This document shows positions 948 to 13,618 of a stretch of 13,829 nucleotides of DNA, one piece after another. Within the stretch, counting starts at the first letter, position 1, and each line of letters begins with the position of its first letter. The DNA is from a bacterium (GTDB taxonomy: Bacteria; Oederibacteriota; Muellerivitia; Muellerivitales; Muellerivitaceae): assembly GCA_035541195.1 (NCBI GenBank), contig DATKNU010000210.1, positions 1 through 13,829 of the forward strand, written 5' to 3'. The notes below the pieces were generated by a model, which saw only the letters and a list, made by a program, of their open reading frames with translations, was not told where the DNA came from and did no database searches. Position numbers and translations under genes: made by a program.

Positions 948-2435
948 TTACTTGGTGGTTAAAACTTGTCCGACGGCCTTTTTCCAACCCGCCCAGAGCC
1001 GGGCCCGGTCGGCCGGTTTCATCTTGGGGGTGAAGACCCTGTCCACCCGGCGAATCTTTTGGATCTCGCCGGCGTTTTTCCAAAATCCCGCCGCCAACCC
1101 CGCCAAATAAGCCGCGCCCATGGCCGTCGTCTCCACCACCTTGGGACGGTTGATGCGCGCGGGCAGGATGTCCGCCTGGAACTGCATGAGCAGGTTGTTC
1201 CGGCAGGCGCCGCCGTCCACTCGCAGTTCCTTGAGCTTTAAATGGGAGTCCTTCAGCATGGCGTCCACCAGGTCCCGGGTTTGATAGCCCATGGATTCCA
1301 GCGCGGCCCTCACCACATGGGCCCGATGGGTCCCCCGGGTGAGGCCCACCAAGGCGCCCCTGGCATGGGGATCCCAATAGGGCGCGCCCAGGCCCACAAA
1401 GGCCGGCACCAGGTAAACCCCGCCGGTATCCTTCACCCCCGCGGCCACCCGCTCGGACTCGGGCGAGGTCTTCACCAAGCCCAGCCCATCCCGAATCCAC
1501 TGCACCGCCGCGCCCCCAATGAAGACCGCCCCTTCGAGGGCATAGACCGGCTGGCCTTTCGCGTCGCAAGCCAAGGTCGTCAGAAGCTTGTTCTTGGAGA
1601 CCAGGAATTTTTGGCCGAGGTTTAAAAGCAGGAAGCAGCCCGTGCCATAGGTGTTTTTGAGGGTTCCCGGTTCATGGCAACCCTGGCCGAAAAGGGCCGC
1701 CTGCTGGTCCCCCGCGATGCCCGTGATGGGGATGCCGGCGCCCAGGTAACCTTTGGCCGAGGTCGCGCCGAAAAGCCCCGAGGAAGCCTGGACCTTGGGC
1801 AAGAGCGGCGCCGGCACATGAAGGATTTCCAAAAGCCGGGGATCCCACCGTTTCTCCCGGATGTTGTAAAGCAAAGTCCTGGAGGCGTTGGTGTGGTCGG
1901 TGGCGTGGACTTTGCCGCCGGTGAGTTTCCAAAGAAGCCAGCTGTCGACGGTGCCGAAGGCCAATTGCCCCCTGGCGGCCTTGGCCCGCGCGCCCGGCAC
2001 ATGATCGAGGAGCCACTCCACCTTGGTGCCCGAAAAATAAGCGTCCACCAGGAGGCCCGTCTTTTGCTGGAAGAGCTTGCCGTGGCGTTTTTTCAGTTCG
2101 TCGCTTCGGCGCGCCGTGCGGCGGCATTGCCACACGATGGCCCGGTGGATGGGCTTGCCGGTCCCGCGGTCCCAGAGCACCGTGGTTTCCCTTTGGTTGG
2201 TGATGCCGACGGCGGCCACCGAGGAGGGCTTCACGCCCGCGGCCTTCAGCGCTTTTTGGCCCGTCGCCTCGACGGTCTGCCAGATTTCAGAGGCGTCATG
2301 TTCCACCCAGCCGGGCTGGGGGAAATATTGGGTGAACTCTTGGTAGGCGCTTCCCGCCACTTTGCCCGCCCGGTCAAAAAGGTAGGTGCGGGTACCCGTG
2401 GTGCCTTGGTCGATGGCGAGGATAAATTTGGACAT
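948..2435 (-). CDS. glpK: Glycerol kinase
   Basis: The protein MSKFILAIDQGTTGTRTYLFD...EFTQYFPQPGWVEHDASEIW...GITNQRETTVLWDR...YALEGAVFIGGAAVQWLRD... is an unmistakable FGGY-family glycerol kinase, 495 aa. The track ORF (948-2588) extends 51 codons upstream of the true start. I place the start at ATG 2433-2435(c), which has a perfect AGGAGG 4 nt upstream (TTTTTAGGAGGTTTTATG) and matches the GlpK N-terminus MSK..LAIDQGTTSSR. Confidence 0.95.
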   Translation of the reverse strand: MSKFILAIDQGTTGTRTYLFDRAGKVAGSAYQEFTQYFPQPGWVEHDASEIWQTVEATGQKALKAAGVKPSSVAAVGITNQRETTVLWDRGTGKPIHRAIVWQCRRTARRSDELKKRHGKLFQQKTGLLVDAYFSGTKVEWLLDHVPGARAKAARGQLAFGTVDSWLLWKLTGGKVHATDHTNASRTLLYNIREKRWDPRLLEILHVPAPLLPKVQASSGLFGATSAKGYLGAGIPITGIAGDQQAALFGQGCHEPGTLKNTYGTGCFLLLNLGQKFLVSKNKLLTTLACDAKGQPVYALEGAVFIGGAAVQWIRDGLGLVKTSPESERVAAGVKDTGGVYLVPAFVGLGAPYWDPHARGALVGLTRGTHRAHVVRAALESMGYQTRDLVDAMLKDSHLKLKELRVDGGACRNNLLMQFQADILPARINRPKVVETTAMGAAYLAGLAAGFWKNAGEIQKIRRVDRVFTPKMKPADRARLWAGWKKAVGQVLTTK

Positions 2436-2467
2436 AAAACCTCCTAAAAAGTTGAGCCCTATCTCAC

Positions 2468-2483
2468 CACCAAGACACCAAGA
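2468..2483. repeat. Left inverted-repeat arm: two tandem copies of the octamer CACCAAGA (CACCAAGACACCAAGA)
   Basis: Read directly from the sequence: 2468-2482 CACCAAGACACCAAG is the exact reverse complement of 2900-2914 CTTGGTGTCTTGGTG, a 15/15-bp match. The arm lies 33 nt upstream of the glpK start codon, at the left boundary of the AT-rich island. Confidence 0.85.
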
Positions 2484-2517
2484 AAAGCCAAACAAAAATA
2501 AAATTCGGAATCTATGC

Positions 2518-2850
2518 TCACTGGCCCTTCTTGTTTTTACGGTTTCGCTTTTGGTTACACTTTGAACAAAGCGCTCGCAAATTCGCAAGTGCGTGGCACT
2601 TCACATAAGCTATATGGAGCGGCACCTTACTATCGGCAAACGACTTTACCGTTCTTATATGATCAACATGTAATTCACTCGGTTTTAAGATCTTTTTACA
2701 ATCCGCACAACAGTTTTTCTGTTTCTTCAGCAGATCTTCTATCTTTTTTCTTCCATGATACTTTCTCACATTCAGAGTTCGTAGTACGTGGTAGCGAAAT
2801 CTTTCTGGCGGGAGAATGTCATCGTCAAATTTATAGGTCCGTAGTTTCAT
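2518..2850 (-). CDS. Stand-alone HNH endonuclease (zinc-finger HNH nuclease, 110 aa)
   Basis: MKLRTYKFDDDILPPERFRYHVLRTLNVRKYHGRKKIEDLLKKQKNCCADCKKILKPSELHVDHIRTVKSFADSKVPLHIAYVKCHALANLRALCSKCNQKRNRKNKKGQ. The HNH signature is present: a C-x2-C pair (CADC), then H-V-D-H-I, a conserved N (ANL), and a second C-x2-C (CSKC), where Asn replaces the usual final His (CSKCN). A Lys/Arg-rich tail follows. I prefer the start at ATG 2848-2850(c), which is preceded by AAGGAAGG with a 4-nt spacer. The track ORF begins 10 codons earlier at a TTG. Confidence 0.8.
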   Translation of the reverse strand: MKLRTYKFDDDILPPERFRYHVLRTLNVRKYHGRKKIEDLLKKQKNCCADCKKILKPSELHVDHIRTVKSFADSKVPLHIAYVKCHALANLRALCSKCNQKRNRKNKKGQ

Positions 2851-2898
2851 TTCGCCTTCCTTTTGTTTTCGTCCTCCCAAGAATTCGACTTTGCAGTC

Positions 2899-2922
2899 CT
2901 TGGTGTCTTGGTGCCTTGGCGG
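2899..2922. repeat. Right inverted-repeat arm: three tandem octamers CCTTGGTG-TCTTGGTG-CCTTGGCG (reverse complement of CACCAAGG/CACCAAGA/CGCCAAGG)
   Basis: Read directly from the sequence. The array starts 35 nt after the M48 stop codon (as read on the minus strand) and sits just upstream of the HNH gene RBS. It pairs perfectly over 15 bp with the left arm, 417 bp away. Confidence 0.85.
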
Positions 2923-2933
2923 TGAAAAGAGAT

Positions 2934-4058
2934 TTATTTCAAAGAAATTTGGACTTGTTTCCAGTCGATACCGGCAAAAAGTTTCGGATTTTTAGGTTCC
3001 AAAGTCTTCGATAAGTCTTCCAAAGCCGCCACCCGGTCCCGGCTCGCCGGGTGGTCCGACAGGAAGGCCGCGGCTTTCCCGCCCATCATTCCCTGTTCTT
3101 GGGCCAAACGGGCGAAAAAATCCTCCAAGGGTTTTACCGGTAGGTTGGCCCGGGCCAAAAGCCTGGCCCCGTCCAAATCCGCCTCTGATTCCTGTCCCCG
3201 GCTGAAGGATAGGTTCAAAACTTTTCCAGCCTCGTCGGCCAAAACCGCGAAACCGCCATGGCCGAATAAAAGGGCGATCCAAAGCTTCATGCCCAATTGC
3301 TCCACGGTGCGGCGCACCACGTGCCGGTGCAGCACATGCTGAAGTTCGTGGGCCAAGACCCCCGCCACTTCCTCGGGGCTTTGGGCTTGTTCCACCAAGC
3401 CGGTCAAAAGAAAAATCTCGCCCCCGGGCAAGGCGAAAGCGTTCACTTCGGGGTTTTGAAGGACGTGGATTTGAAAATGATAGCCCGGATTATCGGGGAT
3501 CGAGGCCGTCAACCGGGCCAGGATGGTTTGCGCCGCGTCAACCACGGGGCCCGATTCCACCACCTTGGCTTGGGCCATCTCGCTTTGGGCTTGAACCTCG
3601 CCCCAAGCCGCTTCCATGTCCAAGGGCAGGTGCTTGGCCGCGAAGTCCGCCGCGAAATGGCCCAAGGCCCAATAGCCGCCGAAAAAGAGGGCGGCCGCGC
3701 CTGAGGCGGCCAAGAGCAGGTTGCGCCATTTGGCGGCGAGGATGCTTCGGTGTTGTTTTTTGAAGTTCAGCAGGAAGCTTTTGTGGGGCTCGGGCAGTTT
3801 CAGGGCCAAGGCCCCCCGAAAATCCGGGTCTTGGACGATCAGGCTGCCGTTGAATTCCGCCCCGGGGGCGGAAGACTTAATCTTGAGGAATCCGCCGTCC
3901 TCGCCCGTGTGGGCCAATTCCAGGCTCCGGTAAGCCCACTGGAAAACCGGGCCTTCCTCGATTTGGCCCTCCAGGCCCAGCGGCCCCAGGCTCAGGCGGC
4001 AGGCCTGGGCCCCGCCCCGTCCGTCCGATCGATAAGCGGCCGCGGGGTAATCGCCCAT
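2934..4058 (-). CDS. M48-family zinc metallopeptidase (HtpX/Ste24-like) with an approximately 110-aa N-terminal extension and a TM segment
   Basis: The motifs HELQHVLHRH (HExxH) and the downstream GQESEADLDG (ExxxD) are typical of peptidase M48. A hydrophobic segment LLLAASGAAALFFGGYWALGHF precedes the catalytic domain. The track ORF starts with GTG at 4061. I prefer the adjacent ATG at 4056-4058(c), which is preceded by AGGGG. The gene lies 9 nt downstream of the GlsB/YeaQ gene stop. Confidence 0.85.
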   Translation of the reverse strand: MGDYPAAAYRSDGRGGAQACRLSLGPLGLEGQIEEGPVFQWAYRSLELAHTGEDGGFLKIKSSAPGAEFNGSLIVQDPDFRGALALKLPEPHKSFLLNFKKQHRSILAAKWRNLLLAASGAAALFFGGYWALGHFAADFAAKHLPLDMEAAWGEVQAQSEMAQAKVVESGPVVDAAQTILARLTASIPDNPGYHFQIHVLQNPEVNAFALPGGEIFLLTGLVEQAQSPEEVAGVLAHELQHVLHRHVVRRTVEQLGMKLWIALLFGHGGFAVLADEAGKVLNLSFSRGQESEADLDGARLLARANLPVKPLEDFFARLAQEQGMMGGKAAAFLSDHPASRDRVAALEDLSKTLEPKNPKLFAGIDWKQVQISLK

Positions 4059-4067
4059 CACCGGCCC

Positions 4068-4357: not shown

Positions 4358-5578
4358 TCAGCGCGCCCGCGCCTTTCGGTAGTTCATGAGGGAAAGGGAC
4401 GCCGCCAGGGCCAAAATAAGCGCCGCCAGGTAAAAGGGGGCGCCCGGCAGTTGGGGCGAGCGGCCCGGCGCGATGAAGAAAGCGTACACCGAGGTGAAAA
4501 GCCCCGGGGCCAGGAGCTCCGAAAGGGCCCGGATGGAGCCATTGGCGCCCTGGAGCCTTCCTTGCTCCGAATGCCCAACCCTTTGGGACATGAGGCTTTG
4601 AAGCGGCGAGCCCGCCAGGCCCCAAAGGGCCATCAAGGGAATGGCGCACCAAAAGGCCCATCCGACAGAGGCGGTGCCGAAGGCCGTGAAGCCCAGGATG
4701 CCGAAAAGGAAGCCCAGCAAAAGCGACTTCCATTCGCCGATGCTTTTGACCACCGGCCGGATGAGGCCGCCCTGGACCACGCCGGTGAAAATGCCCACCA
4801 ACATCAAGGTGAAACCCACTTGTTTCGGGTCCCAACCGTAACGATAGCCCCCATAAAGCACGAAGACGCTCGACAGCACGCCATGGGCCAGGTAATTGAG
4901 GAACTGCAGGAAGGCCAATCCCGATAGCTCGGGATGGGACTTGAGCAGGACCAGTGAGCCCACCGGGTTCGATTTTTTCCAGCTGAAGGCCGCCCGCCGG
5001 GAAGCTTTCAGGGATTCGGGCAGGATGAAATAACCATAGAGGAAATTCAGCAGGCTCAAGGTCCCCGCCACCCAAAAGGGCAGCCGCGGAGAGATGGAAC
5101 CCAGCCATCCGCCCACCCCCGGCCCCACCACAAACCCCAGGCTGAAAGCCGCGCCCAAAATCCCGAAACCCGCCGCCCTTTGCTTGGGGCTGGTGGAATC
5201 GGCGATATAAGCGAAGGCCGTCACCACGCTGGAGGCGGTGAGCCCCGAGAGGACCCGCCCCACCAAAAGCCATCCCGTGGTGGGCGCCAGGGCCATGACG
5301 ATGTAATCCAGCCCCATCCCCAAGCAGGAGATCAAAAGTACGGGCCGGCGTCCGAAGCGGTCCGAGATGGAACCGATGAGCGGCGAAAAGAGGAATTGCA
5401 TCAAGGCGAAGAGCGTGCCGAAAAGGCCGTAGACCAGCGCCCCATGCGCGGGGTCGCCGCCCGAAAGGCTCACCACCAGCCGGGGCAGGATGGGGATGAT
5501 GATGCCCAGGCCCAACATGTCCAAAAGCACCACCACGAAGATGAAGGTCAAGGCATGGTTGGACTTTGTCTTTTTCAA
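4358..5578 (-). CDS. MFS transporter, TetA/TCR (DHA1) family-like
   Basis: 406 aa with 12 predicted TM segments. The N-terminus ...LTFIFVVVLLDMLGLGIIIPILPRL aligns with TetA-type MFS proteins (ITLLDAMGIGLIMPVLP), and a DRFGRRPVLL motif is present. The start is TTG at 5576-5578(c), preceded by GGGGAG with a 5-nt spacer. The overlapping 423-aa ORF 4344-5615 is an out-of-frame artefact. Confidence 0.85.
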   Translation of the reverse strand: MKKTKSNHALTFIFVVVLLDMLGLGIIIPILPRLVVSLSGGDPAHGALVYGLFGTLFALMQFLFSPLIGSISDRFGRRPVLLISCLGMGLDYIVMALAPTTGWLLVGRVLSGLTASSVVTAFAYIADSTSPKQRAAGFGILGAAFSLGFVVGPGVGGWLGSISPRLPFWVAGTLSLLNFLYGYFILPESLKASRRAAFSWKKSNPVGSLVLLKSHPELSGLAFLQFLNYLAHGVLSSVFVLYGGYRYGWDPKQVGFTLMLVGIFTGVVQGGLIRPVVKSIGEWKSLLLGFLFGILGFTAFGTASVGWAFWCAIPLMALWGLAGSPLQSLMSQRVGHSEQGRLQGANGSIRALSELLAPGLFTSVYAFFIAPGRSPQLPGAPFYLAALILALAASLSLMNYRKARAR

Positions 5579-5644: not shown

Positions 5645-5663
5645 TCGGCGAGACCCGCCCCCC

Positions 5664-6533
5664 TTAAGGTTTGGCGTCGATCGTCTTGCTCTTGACGTAA
5701 GCGGACAGGTTGTCGACCGCCTCCAGCATGTTCACCGGCACGGCCAAAACCACGGTATTGGAGGCCGTGGGGCCCAGGCCGTCGATGGTCTGCAGGGTTC
5801 GAAGCTGCATGGCGCCGGGGCTGGCGGCCATGGTCTGGGCCGCGGCGGCCAAGTTGACGGCGGCCTCGCGGTCGCCCTCGGCCTTGGTGATGGTGGCGCG
5901 TTTTTCCCGCTCGGCGGAGGCCTGCCGGGACATCATCTTCTTGAGTTCCTCGGGCATGTTGATGTCCTGGATGCGGATGCCGGTGACTTCCAGGCCCCAG
6001 TCCTTGGTGTCGTTCTCCACCGTCGTCTCGATGGCCTTGCCGATGGCCTCGCGCTCGCCCAAGAGCTGGTCCAAGGTCATTTGGCCGATGACGTCCCGCA
6101 GCGAAGTCTGGGCATATTGCAGGATGGCGTAGCGGTAATCCTGCACCTTGATGACCGCGTCCGCCGGTTCATCCACCTTGAAGAAGATGACCCCGTTGAT
6201 GGTGACCGGCACGTTGTCCTTGGTGATGACCTGCTGGGCCGGGATGTCGGTGGTGCGGATGCGCATGTCCACGAAGGTCACTTGGTCCAAAATGGGGATG
6301 ACCAGGAAAAGGCCTGGGCCTTTCATGGCGCTGAACTTGCCCAGGCGGAAGACCACGCCCTTTTCCCATTGGGCGGCCATCTTAAGGCCCGAGCAGACGA
6401 TGAAGTCCAAAAACAGCCAAGCCACGAAAGCGGCGGCGCCGAAACCGGGGCTGACCATCATGATCGGGAAGCAAACCGCGCCCCCTAAAATCAGCAGGAC
6501 GGTGAATAGTAAAGCCGAGACGCTGTTGATCAT
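5664..6533 (-). CDS. SPFH domain / band-7 family protein (stomatin/prohibitin-like)
   Basis: 289 aa. An N-terminal membrane anchor is followed by ...WEKGVVFRLGKFSAMKGPGLFLVIPILDQVTFVDMRIRTTDIPAQQVITKDNVPVTINGVIFFKV...TSLRDVIGQMTLDQLL..., the canonical SPFH/band-7 core, and then a coiled-coil tail. The ATG at 6531-6533(c) has GAGGTG upstream. Confidence 0.9.
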   Translation of the reverse strand: MINSVSALLFTVLLILGGAVCFPIMMVSPGFGAAAFVAWLFLDFIVCSGLKMAAQWEKGVVFRLGKFSAMKGPGLFLVIPILDQVTFVDMRIRTTDIPAQQVITKDNVPVTINGVIFFKVDEPADAVIKVQDYRYAILQYAQTSLRDVIGQMTLDQLLGEREAIGKAIETTVENDTKDWGLEVTGIRIQDINMPEELKKMMSRQASAEREKRATITKAEGDREAAVNLAAAAQTMAASPGAMQLRTLQTIDGLGPTASNTVVLAVPVNMLEAVDNLSAYVKSKTIDAKP

Positions 6534-6694: not shown

Positions 6695-7675
6695 TTAGTG
6701 AAGCAGGAACTGGGTCCCCAAGGCGTAGGTCGGATCCACCGTCTGCACCCCGATCAGATTGGTATAAACCGGCACTTGAACCTTGGCGTAAAGCACCGAA
6801 TCCCCCGACAGGTTCCAGGAAAAACCCGGCGACAGATCCAACACCGTCCCGCCGGTGTTGGGGGCCGTCACGACCGCGGTCTGGCTGTCATTTGCCTTGC
6901 TGTCGGCATCGGCATAACGGCCCTCCACGGCCAGCGAAATGGCCAAGTCATCCGCCAAGTGGTACTGGCCCGAAATGCCCCCCGTATAGGAAGTCCCGAA
7001 GGCGTAGTCCCAAACCGCGCTGGTGGAATCGCTGGTCAGCGCCTTCGTGTGGGCGACCACGTTGAAGTTGGCGCTCAAGGTGAAGTCATCCCAAACATGG
7101 TTGTAGAGCAATCCCCCGTAAAAACCGAAGGCCCCGGTCCCCAATTGGGAATGGGTGTCCAAGTTGTCCCCCGTGACGCCGGACTTAAAATCCGTCCCGC
7201 CCGTGGGCAGGTAGGCTCCCCCCGAAAGCGCCAGGGCCTGGTGTTCCTTGGTCTTGAAGTCCGTGTCCTGCCAAAAGAAATAACGGGCCCCGACCATCAC
7301 ATCCCCGATGCCGAAGGGCGTCCCGCTGTCGGCCAGGGTCCCGCCCGGCACCGCCGGGGCGTCGCCCGCCGAAAGGGTCCAATATTTTTCCACCAGGGGC
7401 AGCATGGCTGTCAGGGTCCAATCGCCGCTGGGGCTGTAATTCAAGGTGGCGTTGAAGTTCACCTGCCGCACCGCCTCGGTTTGGGTGACATCGTCATCGC
7501 TTTGGGCGCTGGCGGTCAGGTAGATGCTTTGAAAATCCAGCCGCACCGCGCCCGCCAAAGGATGGGCGCTGGCGGAAGATTGCAGGGGATCCCCGCAGCC
7601 GCAAACCGAACAGGCCCAAGCGGCCGGGACGGTTAAAAATAAAAAGAACGAGAACAGCCATGAAAATTTCGGCAT
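6695..7675 (-). CDS. Putative outer-membrane beta-barrel protein with N-terminal Cys cluster (CSVCGCG)
   Basis: 326 aa. The signal peptide MPKFSWLFSFFLFLTVPAAWA| has an A-x-A site. Then comes CSVCGCGDP, followed by a long Gly/Thr/Tyr/aromatic-rich sequence with alternating hydrophobic residues (GAYLPTGGTDFKSGVTGD..., AFGFYGGLLYNHVWDDFTLSANFNVVAHT...), typical of small OM barrels; it resembles the Phenol_MetA_deg-type 'transporter' family. The RBS GGAGA lies 5 nt before the ATG. The family assignment is from memory and was not verified. Confidence 0.65.
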   Translation of the reverse strand: MPKFSWLFSFFLFLTVPAAWACSVCGCGDPLQSSASAHPLAGAVRLDFQSIYLTASAQSDDDVTQTEAVRQVNFNATLNYSPSGDWTLTAMLPLVEKYWTLSAGDAPAVPGGTLADSGTPFGIGDVMVGARYFFWQDTDFKTKEHQALALSGGAYLPTGGTDFKSGVTGDNLDTHSQLGTGAFGFYGGLLYNHVWDDFTLSANFNVVAHTKALTSDSTSAVWDYAFGTSYTGGISGQYHLADDLAISLAVEGRYADADSKANDSQTAVVTAPNTGGTVLDLSPGFSWNLSGDSVLYAKVQVPVYTNLIGVQTVDPTYALGTQFLLH

Positions 7676-7740
7676 TTAAATCTCCTGTGATCGAAATGGG
7701 ACGGCAAGCGTCCGTCAAGCGGTTCGAGCCTTGGGAAGAT

Positions 7741-8106
7741 TTAAGCGCGGGGCGGCGGCGAGATGGGTTCGGCTTTGAAGGAGGGGGGCGCGGCGAACAA
7801 GCGGGCATCCAGGGAGAAAAGAATTCCGGGGCGTGAAAACCGGCTATGAGGGACCCATTTGGCCGTGGGCGCGGGGGCAAAGAAACCGCGGTTCACGGGG
7901 ACGCCATCGGCGGCATAAAGGCCGGCCAAGGGGGCTTGCCCGCAAAGCGAAGGTTGGCGGGACGAGACCGGCGCCAATCCGCAAAGACCCTGGATGGACA
8001 AGGATGCCTCCAAATCCACCTTTTGGACCGCCGGGGCCGGCGGCCAGCAGGGCTCCAGCGCCAACAAGAGGGCGGCGAATAGGACGAGGCAAAATCGCGG
8101 GGACAT
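7741..8106 (-). CDS. Hypothetical small exported protein (121 aa, 4 Cys, Pro/Ala-rich)
   Basis: The N-terminus MSPRFCLVLFAALLLALEPCWPPAP looks like a signal peptide. GC3 is high and consistent with coding. The start lies 9 nt after the stop of the upstream ATP-grasp gene and the stop lies 65 nt before the OM barrel gene, on the same strand. The RBS is weak, so translation may be coupled. Several GC-rich shadow ORFs overlap this region (7833-8186+, 7844-8092-, 7846-8082+, 7893-8141-), so the call is tentative. Confidence 0.45.
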   Translation of the reverse strand: MSPRFCLVLFAALLLALEPCWPPAPAVQKVDLEASLSIQGLCGLAPVSSRQPSLCGQAPLAGLYAADGVPVNRGFFAPAPTAKWVPHSRFSRPGILFSLDARLFAAPPSFKAEPISPPPRA

Positions 8107-8115
8107 GGGTTGAAG

Positions 8116-9081
8116 CTAGCGCACCCTTCGCGGGAATTCAACCCGGGCGGGTCTTTTCGGGGCCCGGGCCCTCCACTCCCGCTTGAATTCCAAGTGGTTC
8201 CCCGGATTTAAGGCCTTGCGCAAAAGCCACCGGGCGATTTGCGGGTTGGACAGGTGGAAGATTCCCGCCATGGGCGTGAAAGTGAATTCCCCGAAGAAAA
8301 TCCCCTTGGTTGTTTTATAAAGATCCACCCGCACGAACTCGAAAGGCTTGGAAAGGGCCTCGGCGATTTTCACCATCTCCCGGAACCCGGCCGGGCGCGC
8401 GGGGACCCGGTCCGGAAGATTCCCGTGGGTTTGGATATAAACCGGCGTGAAATCGGGAACCGTAAAGTGATATTCCCGAAGGTCCACGAAACGGCCCGCG
8501 TCGGCGGCCCCAAACCAGGCTTGGCCCCTGGTGCAGAAAAAGCGGTAGTCCGTCGGCGGAGCCTCTCCCCGGGGGGCCAAGCTCGGCTCCACCAGGATTT
8601 TCTTTTCCAAACCCCGGTACTGCCTTTCCCCGTTGGTGAAAAAATAGTCCCGGCGGGCGGCCCGATAGAGCCTTTTGATTTGCCCGGGCTTCACGCGGTC
8701 GAGCAAAACCCCGTTTCCCGAGCCGTGGGCCGTTTTAGCCACCCGGGTCTTGCCCAAGTGGGGGGCCAGGAATTTCTCAACCTGCCGGAGGGAAGTCCAG
8801 GGTTTCACGCGCAGGACCGCCAGGGTGGGCGACACCTGGACGCGGGGGCAGAGCGATTTGGCCACGGCCTTGGCCTTTTCCTTGTCCACGCACCGGCGCT
8901 CCAGGTCCGACCAGTCCCGGGCATTGAGCGAGAAAAAATAATCCGAAAGATCGGCCCCCGGATCCCCCGGAGGCAGGGGCGCACGGCCCCGGGCCCGGAT
9001 AAAAAGGGGCCTGCCGATCAACCGGCTGGCGAAGGGCCCATCGGGAAGCGCCCCGGCGGCGAGCCGCCGCCACTTCGCCAT
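8116..9081 (-). CDS. ATP-grasp fold protein, TupA-like (PF14305-type); start ambiguous (alternative ATG at 9204)
   Basis: The C-terminal motif FVRVDLYKTTKGIFFGEFTFTPMAGIFH matches the TupA-like ATP-grasp signature as I recall it (RVDxY...G.iyFGExTF.P..G). So do the N-proximal ...CVDKEKAKAVAKSL... and the Gly-rich KTAHGSGNGVLLDR. The track ORF runs on to 9225, but the stretch 9082-9223 is conspicuously AT-rich and non-coding-like, and it would overlap the divergent hydrolase start at 9224. I therefore prefer the ATG at 9079-9081(c), giving 321 aa. The ATG at 9202-9204(c) (MRKFIKK...) remains possible. Confidence 0.6.
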   Translation of the reverse strand: MAKWRRLAAGALPDGPFASRLIGRPLFIRARGRAPLPPGDPGADLSDYFFSLNARDWSDLERRCVDKEKAKAVAKSLCPRVQVSPTLAVLRVKPWTSLRQVEKFLAPHLGKTRVAKTAHGSGNGVLLDRVKPGQIKRLYRAARRDYFFTNGERQYRGLEKKILVEPSLAPRGEAPPTDYRFFCTRGQAWFGAADAGRFVDLREYHFTVPDFTPVYIQTHGNLPDRVPARPAGFREMVKIAEALSKPFEFVRVDLYKTTKGIFFGEFTFTPMAGIFHLSNPQIARWLLRKALNPGNHLEFKREWRARAPKRPARVEFPRRVR

Positions 9082-9223
9082 CAAATTTTCAAGGGCATTC
9101 GGCAAGGGTGTCCAATGGTTAACACGAAATGGCCCGGCCTTTGATCGGGCAAGGGCAGGTTGGATTTTATTCGGAAAAACGGTTTTTTTGATAAACTTTC
9201 TCATTCCTCGAACCGGGAGATCC

Positions 9224-10063
9224 ATGAAACGGACGCTGCTGACCCTCTTGCTTCCCGCCCTATTGGCTTACCTGACCATCGTGGCGGCCTTCGACCTCAA
9301 ACAAAAACAGATCATTTTCGTGCCCCAACCCCTGGACCACGTGACCACCCCGCTCAAATACCACCAACCCTATGAGGTGGTCCATTTCACCGCCGCCGAC
9401 GGCGTGACCCTGAACGGTTGGTGGGTCCACCACCCCGGCCCGCCGACCCACCCGGCCCTGGTCTATTGCCACGGCAACGCGGCCATGCTCTCGCTTTTGG
9501 CCAATGTCACCCACATTTTTTACCGTTATGGGTTCGACGCCCTGGTCTTTGATTATCGGAGCTATGGGGACAGCGAGAAGGCGCCCTTGAGCGAGGCCGC
9601 GGTGGACGCCGACGCCTTGGCGGCTTATCGTTGGGTGCAGGCTAAGGGATATCCGGAAAGCCGCATCTTCATCTGGGGCCATTCCCTGGGGTCCTCGGTG
9701 GCCGCCCAGCTTTCCACCCGCACCCATCCCGCGGGGCTTTTTTTGGAAGGCGCCTTCCCTTCCATCTATGACGTATCGCGGGCGCGCTTTCCCTGGCTCC
9801 TGGTTTTCCCCTTCATGATCCATGACCCCTTCCGGACCGAGGATTACGTCCAGGAACGGACCTGTCCCTTGCTTGAGATCCACGGTGAAAAAGACACCGT
9901 GATTCCCATAAAGCTCGGCGAGGAGGTTTACGCGCGGGCCGCCGAACCCAAGCAATGGATCCAGATCCCCCAGATCGACCACCTGGACTTCCCCAGCGTG
10001 TCGGAACAGTACCGCGAACCCATCATGGATTTTGTGGCGCGATGCCTGAAGAAAAGCCATTAA
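9224..10063 (+). CDS. Alpha/beta-fold serine hydrolase (ABHD13/Bem46-like) with N-terminal membrane anchor
   Basis: The protein starts MKRTLLTLLLPALLAYLTIVAAF (TM anchor). It carries the oxyanion motif VYCHGNAA, the nucleophile elbow GHSLGS, an acid residue in IHGEKDTVIP and a His in IDHLDF, which together form a catalytic triad. I place the start at ATG 9224 with GGGAGA 3 nt upstream; the track start at 9188 is a TTG. This is the only plus-strand gene in the window. Confidence 0.85.
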   Translation: MKRTLLTLLLPALLAYLTIVAAFDLKQKQIIFVPQPLDHVTTPLKYHQPYEVVHFTAADGVTLNGWWVHHPGPPTHPALVYCHGNAAMLSLLANVTHIFYRYGFDALVFDYRSYGDSEKAPLSEAAVDADALAAYRWVQAKGYPESRIFIWGHSLGSSVAAQLSTRTHPAGLFLEGAFPSIYDVSRARFPWLLVFPFMIHDPFRTEDYVQERTCPLLEIHGEKDTVIPIKLGEEVYARAAEPKQWIQIPQIDHLDFPSVSEQYREPIMDFVARCLKKSH

Positions 10064-10100
10064 CCACGATGGCCCGGGCATCGGGGTTGATTGACGTTTA

Positions 10101-10682
10101 TTAAATCAACGAAAGTTTGCGGCGCTTGGCGAGGTCCATCTTTTCCAAAAGCCCGATGATGTGCTCTTCGGTGAGGGAGTTCAGCGCGTAATCGGCCTTC
10201 CCCTCCATCGAGGGCGGCACCACGCAAAAGACGTCGGCTTTGCGGGCGGCCTCCACGCCTTCCGGCGAGACCTCAAAAGCGATGGCCTTGATGGCCTTGA
10301 TTCCCAGGGTTTCCATGACGTTGAAGTTGAGGTCCGGGTTGGGCTTCAGCGAGGGCAGTTCCTCGGCGCAGCGGATGCAGTCAAAATCCTCGGCCAGGTT
10401 GAGGCCGTGCAGTTTTTCGACCACCCGCTTCTGGGTGAAGTTGGAGGTCATGGCCAGGCGAACCTCGAATCCCCGGAGCATGCGGAAGGTTTCTTTCAGG
10501 CCCTCCAAGCTGGTATGGGCTTGTTTCTGGTCGGGCATGGCGTGGCGGGCCAATTCGGCCTCCCGCACCACCCAGTCGAAATCGAAGATGAAGACCTTGG
10601 TCAGCCAGTAGCTCTCGGGCACCGGGCCCCAAAAGTAACTGCGGGGGTTCTTGACGTCGGAAGGACCGAAGGAGACGGGCAA
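10101..10682 (-). CDS. HAD-superfamily hydrolase (subfamily IA-like phosphatase)
   Basis: Motif I is FIFDFDWVV (DxD), motif II is LAMTSNF (T/S), and motif III is KPNPD (the K-P-x-P pattern of HAD-IA). An acidic motif IV region lies near FEVSPEGVEAARKAD. The start is TTG at 10680-10682(c) with AAAGGAAAG 4 nt upstream, only 10 nt after the gatB TAA, which implies translational coupling. The DxD motif sits unusually far from the N-terminus (residue 33), so the true start is uncertain. Confidence 0.7.
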   Translation of the reverse strand: MPVSFGPSDVKNPRSYFWGPVPESYWLTKVFIFDFDWVVREAELARHAMPDQKQAHTSLEGLKETFRMLRGFEVRLAMTSNFTQKRVVEKLHGLNLAEDFDCIRCAEELPSLKPNPDLNFNVMETLGIKAIKAIAFEVSPEGVEAARKADVFCVVPPSMEGKADYALNSLTEEHIIGLLEKMDLAKRRKLSLI

Positions 10683-10692
10683 GGGCTTTCCT

Positions 10693-12150
10693 TTAGGCGT
10701 CCAGCTTCTTCTTGAGGGCCTCGTTGACCAATTTGGGGTTGGCCTTCCCCTGGCTGGCCTGCATGACCTTGCCCACCAGGAAGCCGATCACGCCCTGCTT
10801 GCCGCCCTTGTACTCGGCCACCACCGCGGGGTTTTCGGCCAGCACCTTGTCCACCGCCGCCTCGATGGCCTTGGGGTCCGAGACCTGGGCCATGCCCTTG
10901 GATTTGACCACCTCGGCGGGCGAGGCCCCGGTGTTGAAAAGTTCCAGGAAGACTTCCTTGGCCTGCTTGCTGTTGATGGCGCCGGCCTCCACCAGGTCGG
11001 CCAACTCCGCCAGCTTCTTTTGGTCGTACTTGAGGTCCTTGAGTTCCTTTTCCTGCTCCTTCATCTGGGCCGCCATGTCGCCCATCATCCAATTGGCGAA
11101 GGCTTTCGGGCTCTTGGCCAGCTTGGCCCCCACCTCGAACCAGTCGGCCATCTCCTGGGCGGCGGTCAAGACCCCCGCGTCATAGGCCGGCAGGCCGTAC
11201 TCGGCCATGAACCGCGCCTGCTTGGCGGCGGGAAGCTCGGGCAAGGATCGCCTCAGCTTCTCAACGTAATCCTTGTCCAGCACCAGCGGGACCAGGTCGG
11301 GCTCGGGAAAATAGCGGTAGTCATGGGCCTCTTCCTTGGAGCGCATGGACTTGGTCTTGTTCTCGGTCACGTCCCAAAGCCGGGATTCCTGCACGACCTT
11401 CTCGCCCTTGTCCAAGAGCGCGCTTTGGCGCTTGATCTCGTACTCGATGGCCTGCTTGGCGAACTTGAAGCTGTTCATGTTCTTGATCTCGGTGCGGGTG
11501 CCGAACTTCTGGCTTCCCACGGGCATCACCGACACGTTGGCGTCGCAGCGAAGCGACCCTTCCTCCATGTTGCAATCGGACACGCCGATATAGAGCAGGA
11601 TGTTGCGCAGGGCCGTCAGGTAGGCGTGGGCCTCCTCCGCGCTGCGGATGTCTGGCTCGGACACGATCTCCACCAAGGGGATGCCGCCGCGGTTGTAGTC
11701 CGCCAGCGAATAGTCGGAGGAGTCCAACCGTCCCGCCTTGCCGCCCTGGTGCACCAGCTTGCCCGCGTCCTCTTCCAGGTGCGCCCGCGTCACGCCGATG
11801 CGCTTGGTCCCCTCTTTGGTCACGATGTCCAAATAACCGCCGTAATTGAGGGGCTTGTCGTACTGGGAAATCTGGTAGGCCTTGGGCAGGTCGGGGTAAT
11901 AGTAGTTTTTGCGGTCCATCTTGGAATAGTCCGCGATCTTGCAGTTGAGGGCCAGGCCGATCTTGACCGCGTATTCCACGGCCCTTTCGTTCATGACCGG
12001 CAGCGTGCCGGGAAGCCCCAGGCACACGGGGCAAACCTGGGTGTTGGCCTCATTGCCGAAGACGGTGGAACAACCGCAGAAAAGCTTGGTGGCGGTCTTC
12101 AGTTCGCAGTGGACCTCAAGCCCAATCACCGGGGTGTAAAGGTTGGGCAT
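10693..12150 (-). CDS. gatB: Asp-tRNA(Asn)/Glu-tRNA(Gln) amidotransferase subunit B
   Basis: The protein MPNLYTPVIGLEVHCELKTATKLFCGC...NTQVCPVCLGLPGTLPVMNERAVEYAVKIGLALNC...DRKNYYYPDLPKAYQISQYD... is canonical GatB (485 aa), including the C-terminal YqeY-like tail. The ATG at 12148-12150(c) has GGAGG 6 nt upstream, inside the gatA 3' end. The gatA stop TGA lies 1 nt upstream. Confidence 0.95.
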   Translation of the reverse strand: MPNLYTPVIGLEVHCELKTATKLFCGCSTVFGNEANTQVCPVCLGLPGTLPVMNERAVEYAVKIGLALNCKIADYSKMDRKNYYYPDLPKAYQISQYDKPLNYGGYLDIVTKEGTKRIGVTRAHLEEDAGKLVHQGGKAGRLDSSDYSLADYNRGGIPLVEIVSEPDIRSAEEAHAYLTALRNILLYIGVSDCNMEEGSLRCDANVSVMPVGSQKFGTRTEIKNMNSFKFAKQAIEYEIKRQSALLDKGEKVVQESRLWDVTENKTKSMRSKEEAHDYRYFPEPDLVPLVLDKDYVEKLRRSLPELPAAKQARFMAEYGLPAYDAGVLTAAQEMADWFEVGAKLAKSPKAFANWMMGDMAAQMKEQEKELKDLKYDQKKLAELADLVEAGAINSKQAKEVFLELFNTGASPAEVVKSKGMAQVSDPKAIEAAVDKVLAENPAVVAEYKGGKQGVIGFLVGKVMQASQGKANPKLVNEALKKKLDA

Positions 12151-12151
12151 T

Positions 12152-13618
12152 TCAGGCCTCCTTCAGGGAAGGCTTCAACTGGTGCCACTGGGTGGCTTGC
12201 TCGTAAGCCCAGGCCGTCTTGAGCAAGGTGGATTCGTCGAAGGCCTTGCCGATGAGCTGGAGCCCAATGGGCAGGCCCGTTTTGGAAAGACCGCAGGGCA
12301 ACGAAAGGCCCGGGAGTCCCGTGATGTTGATGGACACCGTAAAGACGTCCTCCAAGTACATGGAAAGCGGGTCGCCGGTCTTTTCCCCGAACTTGAAGGC
12401 GGGGTTGGGCGCGGTGGGCGTGGCGATGACATCGACCTTCCCGAAGGCCTTGTCATAGTCCTGCTTGATGAGGCGGCGCACCTTGAGGGCCTTGAGGTAA
12501 TAAGCGTCGTAGTAGCCCGAGGACAGGGCGTAGGTGCCCAGCATGATGCGGCGTTTCACCTCGGGGCCGAAGCCGGCGGCCCGGGTTTTGGAATACATCT
12601 CCACGATGTTCTCGCCGGGAACCCTCAGGCCGTAGCGCACGCCGTCATAGCGGGCCAGGTTGGACGAAGCTTCCGAGGGCGCCAATAGGTAATAGGCCGC
12701 CAAGCCGTAAGGCGAGGTGGGCAGGGAGACCTCGTGGATCTCGGCGCCTTGTTTTTCCAGTTCCGTAATGGCCTTCTTGACCGCGTCGCCCACCTCCGGA
12801 TTCAGGCCCGAGGGGAAAAACTCCTTGGGGATCCCCACCTTGAGGCCCCGGATCCCCTTCTTCATTTCGGCGGCGTAATCCGGCACGGCCAGGGGGGCGG
12901 AAGTCGAGTCCTTCCGGTCATGGCCCGCGATGGCCGAGAGCATCAGGGCGCAATCCTCCACGTCTTTCGTGAAGGGGCCGATCTGGTCCAAGGACGAGGC
13001 GAAAGCGATCAAACCATAACGGGACACCCGGCCATAGGTGGGCTTCAGCCCCACCAAGCCGCAAAGGGCCGCCGGCTGGCGGATGGAACCGCCGGTGTCC
13101 GAACCCAGCGAGGCGAAGGCCTGGTCCGCGGAAACGCTGGTGGCCGAGCCCCCCGAGGATCCGCCGGGCACGCAGGAAAGGTTCCAGGGGTTTTTGGTCT
13201 TCTGGTAGGCCGAGGTTTCGGTGGAAGAACCCATGGCGAACTCGTCCATGTTGGTCTTGCCCACCGACACGGCCCCCGCCTGGTTCAGGCGCTCCACCAC
13301 GGTGGCGTCATAGGGCGGCTTGAAGGTTTCGAGCATCTTGGAACCGCAGGTCGTGCGCACGCCCTTGGTGCAAAGCAGGTCCTTGAGCGCGATGGGCACG
13401 CCCGTGAAGGGGGTGAGGTCTTTCCCCGCCGCCAGGCGCTTGTCGGCCTCGGCGGCCTGGGCCAGGGCCTGCTCGGGGGTTCTCGTGATGAAGGATTGGA
13501 CCTTGGGCTCGACCTTCTCTAAATGGGCCAAAACCGCCTTGGTCAGTTCAACCGAGGAAATTTTTTTCGCCTTCAGGTCCGCCGAGATTTCGTGGACGGT
13601 TTTTTGGTGCGGTTCCAT
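12152..13618 (-). CDS. gatA: Glutamyl-tRNA(Gln) amidotransferase subunit A
   Basis: The amidase signature [73 protein letters not shown] is near-identical to bacterial GatA. I place the start at ATG 13616-13618(c) ([11 protein letters not shown]...), which aligns with the B. subtilis GatA N-terminus MSLFDHKITEL as recalled from memory. The track ORF extends 14 codons upstream to a TTG. Confidence 0.93.

Follow-up and report, generated by a model that had tools for sequence, protein, structure and literature searches.

What is a stand-alone HNH nuclease gene doing between two inverted arrays of short tandem repeats, in the spacer that separates a metallopeptidase gene from the glycerol kinase gene glpK? 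The arrangement lies in a stretch of bacterial DNA of 13,829 nt (hereafter the window), and the original prediction took the arrays for transposon-like ends of a selfish cassette or of a mini-element mobilised by the nuclease. The answer turns on what the arrays are and on whether array and gene occur together. The spacer and its two neighbouring genes are composed as follows, in coordinates of the window.

948-2435, minus strand: glycerol kinase gene glpK, the downstream gene (Pfam FGGY_N and FGGY_C).
2436-2463, minus strand: glpK leader AGATAGGGCTCAACTTTTTAGGAGGTTTT between hairpin and start codon, with the Shine-Dalgarno sequence AGGAGG at 2440-2445 (20/25 identical to L092; kept in L005).
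2464-2483, minus strand: glpK-proximal arm, minus-strand reading TCTTGGTG-TCTTGGTG-GTGA; the arm has two full units and a terminal TCACCA.
2484-2517, minus strand: 3' part of the loop, a T-rich tract TTTTATTTTTGTTTGGCTTTT touching the second arm (76% identical to L005).
2518-2850, minus strand: stand-alone HNH nuclease ORF of 110 aa within the hairpin loop (Pfam PF01844, 23.3 bits).
2851-2897, minus strand: 5' part of the loop, with the purine-rich ribosome-binding region GGAAGG before the HNH ATG (14/47 identical to L005).
2898-2925, minus strand: M48-proximal arm, minus-strand reading TCAC-CGCCAAGG-CACCAAGA-CACCAAGG, i.e. three tandem 8-nt units and a conserved ACCRCC terminus.
2934-4061, minus strand: M48 family metallopeptidase gene, the upstream gene (Pfam PF01435, 8e-29).

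M48, the HNH ORF and glpK are thus all encoded on the minus strand, and the M48 stop codon lies about 8 nt ahead of the hairpin. Orthologs of M48 are present in the related loci L005, L007, L008, L089 and L092, and a protein identical to the window's glpK product (P0136) carries the NCBI name GlpK. The low-GC island with its 110-aa HNH ORF was correctly recognised at the outset: GC is 0.375-0.44 over positions 2400-2900 and 0.60-0.69 in the flanks, and the HNH ORF is the sole ORF between the arms. It is a real HNH-family gene, with a score above the Pfam cut-off of 21.4 bits for PF01844 and matches to 12 HNH or endonuclease VII families of PHROG, the best of them (9.4e-9) being endonuclease VII. 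Its residues include C48-x2-C51, D63-H64, C85, N90, C98-N99 and R102-N103-R104, and in an alignment of 12 family members D63-H64, N90, N99/N103, C48, C51, C85 and C98 are invariant or nearly so, covering the catalytic His of the D-H pair, the structural Asn, the metal-binding Asn/His and the Cys ligands of the zinc site; the L005 copy lacks the near-invariant C98 and also H86. For the beta-beta-alpha-metal fold of HNH nucleases, a structure model built on a shallow alignment reached a mean pLDDT of 66 (about 80 in the core, residues 40-108), and its best Foldseek matches were HNH nucleases (4h9d, the HNH domain of Cas9, and Cap5), all weak at E >= 0.1. The composition of the gene is distinct, with a GC3 of 0.42 compared with 0.73-0.80, and its presence at the site is limited by lineage, as expected of an inserted gene; the description of a compositionally foreign insert therefore stands.

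Inverted arrays of CACCAAG units at 2464-2483 and 2898-2925 bracket the HNH ORF. Read directly, CACCAAGACACCAAGA occupies 2468-2483 on the plus strand and its reverse complement CTTGGTGTCTTGGTG occupies 2899-2913, so that the 15-bp inverted repeat announced earlier exists, with its right arm displaced by one position from the 2900-2914 given before. The count of two octamer units on the left and three on the right is borne out by direct reading. TRF detected both 8-nt arrays, and an inverted-repeat search returned arms of 20-24 nt with 83-90% complementarity, 398-422 nt apart. On the M48 side the minus-strand units are CGCCAAGG (2921-2914), CACCAAGA (2913-2906) and CACCAAGG (2905-2898), and exact CACCAAGA occurs at only three places in the 13.8-kb window, all of them in the arms. 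We calculate that chance alone would yield a perfect 15-bp inverted repeat in a 500-nt interval about 1e-4 times. Together the octamer arrays make up both arms of a single long hairpin (palindrome) between the genes, and there is one copy of it within the 13.8 kb of this organism's DNA. As originally proposed, the arms would form a long duplex enclosing the HNH ORF on a read-through transcript.

Whether arms and gene belong together can be read from the same junction in relatives. The HNH family is small: a word search gave three relatives, and 13 representatives were found at E<1e-3 among 1.8 billion proteins, in databases that hold many glpK relatives of the hairpin-bearing clade. The closest HNH relative, 62% identical, lies in L001/L005/L006, where the order M48-HNH-glpK is retained; in L005 the arms around HNH measure 27 nt at 96% complementarity, and the glpK-proximal arm has three units against two in the window, in which one 8-nt unit is absent. 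The gene has its own purine-rich ribosome-binding site in both lineages; the segment that includes it (2851-2897) is poorly kept and differs by a 19-nt indel. HNH is present between M48 and glpK in the window and L001/L005/L006 and absent from that position in L092/L094, L007 and L089.

The loci without the gene nevertheless carry a hairpin. In L092/L094, whose M48 and glpK are 68% and 83% identical to those of the window, a near-perfect stem of 26-31 bp built of CGCCAAG units (ACCGCCAAGACGCCAAGTTCGCCAAG / CTTGGCGAACTTGGCGTCTTGGCGGT) encloses a loop of about 50 nt, with a minimum free energy of -62 to -67 kcal/mol. Its flanks align to the window at 28/35 and 35/42 positions; the M48-proximal arm of the window aligns with the left arm of L092 at 28/35 positions, and the glpK-proximal arm with the right arm at 15/17. 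L007 has a stem of 14+14 bp at the same site (-53.6 kcal/mol, z = -6.9) and L089 has arms matching at 14/16 positions, both built of 10-nt units (CACAGATGAA, CGCGGATAAA). L091 is without M48 and has only a small unrelated stem there. Around more distant glpK relatives the neighbouring genes differ and this hairpin is missing, relatives at 77-79% identity are without arrays, P0009 (44% identical to M48) is not adjacent to glpK, and when genome-collection contigs were scanned with the M48 protein, a Flavobacteriaceae locus at 25% identity was all that emerged. In L002 and L003 the HNH homologues stand beside different genes and are without such arms.

These loci speak against taking the arrays as the ends of an HNH-mobilised cassette, since in L092/L094 arrays occupy this very position between the same flanks, with HNH absent. 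The original prediction had named octamer arrays at this position in HNH-less relatives as a finding on which its idea would fail, and L092/L094 largely display it. Nor are the arrays linked to HNH elsewhere: the same hairpin type stands at unrelated loci and in phages, never with this gene, and the L002/L003 homologues are armless. The evidence is against the idea of an HNH-mobilised element.

The hairpin belongs to a dispersed family whose members share one build, namely two to four tandem units of 7-10 nt per arm around a short AT-rich loop. Outside the M48-glpK site, four copies were found in about 115 kb of sequence from the clade, including the following.

L013, 8820-8918: hairpin of CACCAAG units after a pectate-lyase gene.
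L011, 8974-9074: hairpin of CACAGATG units after ftsL, ahead of the gene that follows it in the dcw cluster.
L016, 5870-5972: hairpin of CGCCGATAA units, nested within an inverted CGCGAAG array pair.
L016, 5498-5524 and 5999-6025: the inverted CGCGAAG array pair, enclosing a 474-nt interval.

Hairpins of this family also occur in viral contigs that encode a major head protein, terminase and a Gp2.5-like SSB and are phages by these genes. A scan of viral contigs with ACCRCCAAGNCRCCAAG returned single matches in about the number expected by chance, plus 16 close inverted pairs in at least 13 contigs. Phage contigs of 14-37 kb hold up to two type-A copies each; L114 and the contig from which L126 and L140 derive have two hairpins apiece, and L193 has a hairpin that lies inside the loop of a second. 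The same contigs contain many more hairpins and solo arrays of other 7-10-nt units, several unit types standing together in single contigs (L185, L114). Apparent gene-enclosing "arm pairs" about 1 kb apart in phage contigs proved to be distinct arrays in the intergenic spaces before and after ordinary phage genes (capsid, terminase), and were rejected as cargo-carrying elements. Nothing comparable to the family was seen at 70 unrelated glpK loci. No HNH-family ORF was found in the other hairpin-bearing loci (0.63 Mb and 1.06 Mb searched, the latter being the phage loci), and the 474-nt interior in L016 holds no decayed HNH or remnant of one. Several copies with different flanks are thus known for the short hairpins, and the HNH-bearing form was seen at M48-glpK only.

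Types A, C and D have ACCRCC...GGYGGT termini in common, and terminal inverted repeats are present in the elements. Like the original reading of the window, our inspection of the flanks of more than 20 copies revealed no target-site duplication; the flanks merely extend the palindrome (TGAACC...GGTTCA, or a T-run and an A-run). The loops of the short elements are AT-rich (GC 0.27-0.37), so that the low-GC island of the window is partly a property of the hairpin family, and T-rich tracts comparable to that of the window precede the second arm in L013, L011, L016 and L007. As far as could be found, a hairpin-repeat family with arms of tandem 7-10-nt units has apparently not been described before.

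Each element folds into a long stem of -44 to -116 kcal/mol. Among five type A/D elements 98.8% of the alignment cells pair, 4 of 17 pairs having changed on both sides (A-U to G-C, C-G to G-C), and no slid register comes close to this value. Such a pattern would fit selection on pairing; however, covariation between the arms of a palindrome can also come from template-switch repair without selection on RNA, and because such repair can keep arms alike, covariation is no proof of an RNA role. An intrinsic (Rho-independent) terminator was rejected, as no U-tract follows the stems (AGATAGGG, AAAAAGGG or CAAAAAAAGG stands there instead) and there is no terminator-like site at the arms; when positions 2380-3000 were scanned for promoters and terminators, the counts did not exceed those of shuffled sequence and no site fell on the arms. 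The loop of L007 has a sigma-54-like TGGCAT, which was likewise dropped, being without a -12 element by eye. Searches against Rfam 15, which includes the HNH-associated HEARO/IscB RNA, gave no match at gathering thresholds in the window, L001 or L007 and none with E<=1 in window positions 2400-2960; sub-threshold matches in L016 (a plant miRNA-precursor model on the hairpin, and GA-cis) were taken as chance. An argument from a fixed orientation of the hairpin relative to flanking genes is void, because a palindrome reads alike on both strands; the sole remaining strand hint is that two G.T positions of the window stem would be G.U in the sense transcript.

How often did the gene enter the site? 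In the M48 phylogeny the window and L005 are sisters (84% aa identity), and L007, L089 and L092 form the other clade; given this sister relationship, one HNH insertion in the common ancestor of the window and L005 suffices. Independent acquisitions were considered on account of an HNH dS of 2.0 against an M48 dS of 0.59, and were dropped because M48 is a mosaic (pS 0.17-0.66, with a tract at 0.17-0.28) and its unrecombined background is close to the HNH value: HNH has a pS of 0.70, compared with 0.5-0.66 in the unrecombined parts of M48 and glpK. Between the window and L005 the HNH dN/dS is 0.11, and the protein is, by this estimate, under purifying selection. The GC3 of the gene is 0.42 in both lineages despite near-saturated synonymous divergence, which is not explained by simple vertical descent in a genome of 55-60% GC. 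Regarding where the gene came from, neither tblastn with HNH against records of phages and plasmids nor pattern matching on viral contigs returned anything that would point to a mobile pool, so there is no evidence of a phage or plasmid origin.

The hairpin itself has a less orderly history. Its type at the M48-glpK site departs from the host tree, L092 having type A and both its close relative L089 and L007 having type B. L092 and L089 are 86-87% identical at the nucleotide level throughout M48 and glpK, with no breakpoint; none that would explain type A in L092 was found in its coding flanks. Since hairpin type and host tree conflict, the site has been overwritten at least once, and replacement of a hairpin at a site is more readily reconciled with repeats that move or undergo gene conversion than with a regulatory site that stays fixed.

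The reading we prefer, with a probability of roughly 0.7, is that the arrays form a REP/MITE-like dispersed hairpin repeat whose AT-rich loop came to house a free-standing HNH gene in a single sub-lineage, that of the window and L005. One copy of the hairpin occupies the M48-glpK spacer in this bacterial lineage, and in the ancestor of the window and L005 organisms an HNH gene with its own ribosome-binding site would have entered the loop, the sole spot in this tight spacer where an insertion spares the stem, the M48 stop and the glpK leader. From then on the gene would have been passed on vertically under purifying selection. Presumably the hairpin works chiefly at the RNA level, in the transcript that reads through from M48 into glpK, where it would be a double-stranded element for processing or stability, of the RNase III or 3' exonuclease type; the family may spread through some mobility or gene conversion, and the gene may have arrived as a selfish, homing-type gene. 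Several observations are counted against this reading. Among them are the GC3, the departure of the hairpin type from the host tree and the possible origin of arm covariation in template-switch repair, all mentioned above. Another is the exact flanking of HNH by arms of the family, as RAYT genes are flanked by REPs, which makes a functional link possible. Endonuclease VII, the best PHROG match of the protein, is moreover a family of structure-specific nucleases.

The last two observations lead to a model in which the nuclease would be the partner enzyme of the repeats. The 110-aa HNH protein would be a structure-specific nuclease acting on the extruded hairpin or cruciform of tandem-unit palindromes, mobilising them or homing into their loops; the HNH-bearing copy would be the autonomous or master member and the short hairpins non-autonomous, like REPINs served by a single-copy RAYT, which would make it an HNH counterpart of the RAYT-REPIN system common to an uncultured bacterial lineage and its phages. 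Precise bracketing in two lineages (in L005 by 27 nt that are 96% complementary) agrees with the model, as do the endonuclease VII match, the existence of arm pairs with long interiors (474 nt in L016) and the nesting of elements in one another's loops (L193, L016), which suggests loop-directed insertion; purifying selection (dN/dS 0.11) and a single locus would also match RAYTs (PMC3116915). Against it, hairpins are plentiful without any HNH homologue, both in the 1.06 Mb of phage loci and in the L089, L092, L007, L011, L013 and L016 loci, and only 13 HNH representatives (E<1e-3 among 1.8 billion proteins) face the many glpK relatives of the hairpin-bearing clade. Arms are missing around the homologues in L002 and L003, C98 and H86 are gone from the L005 copy, the long interior in L016 retains no HNH remnant, no target duplication was found, and we know of no transposition chemistry for a lone HNH nuclease. 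We therefore consider this model unlikely, and the enzymatic role that it ascribes to the protein doubtful to the same degree.

Selection on the gene could alternatively mean that it has been domesticated, being expressed from the M48-glpK operon with an enclosing stem that regulates it (e.g. by sequestering or processing the mRNA), so that its position would be functional. Its dN/dS of 0.11 over nearly saturated synonymous divergence agrees with such a history, and its own purine-rich ribosome-binding site in both lineages, the 76% conservation of the 3' loop segment and an orientation shared with the flanking genes point the same way. A host gene would, however, hardly be absent from the three nearest lineages with the same operon, keep its foreign composition and lose zinc-ligand and His residues in the L005 copy, and nothing evident connects it functionally with glycerol metabolism or M48; we regard domestication as quite improbable. 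Less credible still is a DNA operator, i.e. iterated inverted binding sites for a regulator of glpK or M48, for which the location of the arrays about 30 nt upstream of the glpK start and the resemblance of iterated short units to multi-site operators might be cited. Close relatives, however, differ wholly in unit sequence and period at this site (CGCCAAG, CACAGATGA, CGCGGATAA), identical units and arrays are found in phage genomes and next to genes of other kinds, changes in one arm are matched by compensatory changes in the other, and the glpK relatives at 77-79% identity lack such arrays. Judged by these sequence comparisons, the arrays are not a glpK operator.

Inverted iterated repeats at this locus therefore do not mark a new HNH transposon, and a tempting false lead is removed. 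The interest of the hairpin family lies in an architecture that persists even as the units of the two arms change their sequence together, in its being common to bacterial chromosomes and phage genomes, and in members that nest in one another's loops. The window adds a clear case from nature of a nuclease gene that has long persisted in the loop of such a hairpin. Should the hairpins be elements of RNA processing or stability, they would be useful landmarks of operon structure in a lineage without cultured members; should the HNH protein act on them, this would constitute a new kind of partnership between repeat and enzyme.

Among known systems, the closest comparison is with REPs, REPINs and their RAYT transposases (Bertels & Rainey 2011, PMC3116915; PMC3337134), in which a single-copy gene flanked by repeats is the signature of a partner enzyme (PMC3116915; PMC3337134). 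The hairpins described here are likewise short, dispersed, multi-copy extragenic palindromes between genes, and, as in REPINs, two inverted conserved ends and a less conserved spacer give a hairpin of about 100 nt. REPINs number tens to hundreds per genome. The arms of the hairpins described here, however, consist of 7-10-nt units repeated in tandem and come in many sequence types, whereas a REP is one conserved 16-25-mer with its own small palindrome, and unlike REPs these hairpins also occur in phage genomes. The flanked gene is an HNH gene without a Y1_Tnp match, in contrast to the IS200-like Y1 transposase of RAYTs, and, unlike in REPIN-RAYT systems, most hairpin-bearing sequences show no flanked gene. 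MITEs resemble the family in having terminal inverted repeats around a short AT-rich interior and nested insertions, and an IStron-like arrangement, in which a large hairpin carries a transposase in its loop (PMC4853749), is comparable as a long hairpin with coding sequence in its loop. Unlike in either, no target-site duplication was seen and no transposase is present here, and the sequence of the arms varies while the architecture is kept.

The gene itself shares several features with homing endonuclease genes: it is a short ORF for a nuclease, has a ribosome-binding site of its own and a foreign composition, and occurs sporadically at a single orthologous site that relatives retain as an intact empty allele. 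Intergenic regions of phages harbour free-standing homing endonuclease genes, HNH genes among them, and other endonuclease ORFs are looped out of the stems of group I introns. A Twort intron, for instance, carries a nicking endonuclease in its P6 loop (mentioned in PMC4853749). As with such looped-out ORFs, HNH lies in the terminal loop of a structured element and leaves the pairing undisturbed. It differs from homing endonuclease genes in its 110 aa without a recognisable DNA-binding extension, from intron-borne endonucleases in that there is no intron or ribozyme here (no Rfam match), from phage homing genes in that no phage or plasmid relatives of the window's HNH were found, and from active homing in that the pattern of HNH divergence fits one old insertion.

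The heptamer arrays of cyanobacterial STRR sequences and the RNase III processing hairpins between genes of phage T7 are parallels of another kind. There is no sequence relationship with either, and RNase III processing of the hairpins described here would be putative. With STRR arrays they share tandem units of the 7-nt class scattered in intergenic DNA; with the T7 hairpins they share long near-perfect stems between co-transcribed genes, including stems around the capsid genes of phages.

Hairpins with arms of short tandem units were also found nested within one another. One case is the phage contig L193, in which a hairpin of CGCAGAGG units with its own AACCGC terminus lies exactly in the loop of a hairpin of CGCCAAG units (4388-4528; -115.6 kcal/mol). 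This exact placement suggests that the loops of tandem-unit hairpins are preferred, or at least tolerated, insertion points. Nesting likewise occurs in a relative of the window (L016, 5498-6025), where inverted arrays of CGCGAAG units surround 474 nt in which no ORF longer than 35 aa is present, and a hairpin of CGCCGATAA units (5870-5972) is situated inside this interval. Also in this interval, CTGTCATTGCGACGAG and CTCGCGATGACAG (about 5654-5815) make up an inverted pair at long range, which looks like a structured RNA; Rfam gave no match above threshold.

In the window, the loop of the hairpin between the M48 and glpK genes is occupied by the HNH nuclease gene (2518-2850, minus strand). Its GC3 is 0.42-0.43 both here and in the copy of the sister lineage L005 (7195-7524), and that of the neighbouring genes is 0.64-0.80. 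Synonymous sites are near saturation between the two copies, and the low GC content is kept up by some cause other than recent arrival. A further reading frame crosses this gene on the opposite strand:

2514-3014, plus strand: ATG-initiated ORF of 166 aa that runs antisense to HNH and to the last part of the M48 gene

This frame was taken to be probably spurious, since both of the minus-strand genes that it crosses are supported.

Along the M48 gene, the window and L005 show a mosaic pattern of synonymous divergence. Over the first 166 codons pS is 0.66 and 0.52, falls to 0.17 and 0.28 in codons 166-333 (window 3063-3566), and is 0.43 thereafter. A pair of relatives that have diverged from each other to a comparable degree, and whose M48-glpK hairpin lacks HNH (L089 and L007), shows no corresponding dip in M48. 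The low-pS segment suggests a tract of homologous recombination between the window and L005 lineages within the gene. In the relative L091, whose glpK is 84% identical, the M48 gene is absent altogether, and FMN_bind_2 is followed by 61 nt and then glpK, with a short GC-rich stem as the sole intervening structure (3679-3745). In the MAG GCA_035716725.1 the assembly broke at or near the hairpin: the M48 contig (L008, 1450-1482) runs 30 nt beyond the M48 stop and ends just within TTTTCACCGCAAAGA; the glpK contig (L090) begins within glpK.

Variants of CACCAAGA with one mismatch are present 38 times in the whole window against 10 expected from shuffles, mostly as CACCAAGG and CACCAAGC within coding regions; this excess may reflect codon or dipeptide usage, or a relation to the repeat units. 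A separate palindromic repeat, GTCCACGACGGG...CCCGTCGTGGAC, is present in L005 in two copies about 360 nt apart (2172-2217 and 2567-2592), between a BrnA-antitoxin-like gene and MTHFR, and looks like a second hairpin-repeat family of that genome, unrelated to the tandem-unit one.

The tandem-unit family also extends into the conserved dcw cell-division cluster, where in the relative L011 (8533-9120) a hairpin immediately follows ftsL (order MraW-FtsL-hairpin); an essential operon can therefore accommodate such elements. In the phage contig L126 (IMGVR_UViG_3300041955_000624, 7200-13240), tandem arrays of 7-9-nt units occupy almost every intergenic region, and likewise nearly all of those in the phage contigs L142, L213 and L162. 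Their units include CGCGAAG, GGCAATC, CGCATGG, GTCCGTG and ACTGAAA, among others, and the arrays partly form local hairpins, partly stand alone and partly flank capsid or terminase genes on both sides.
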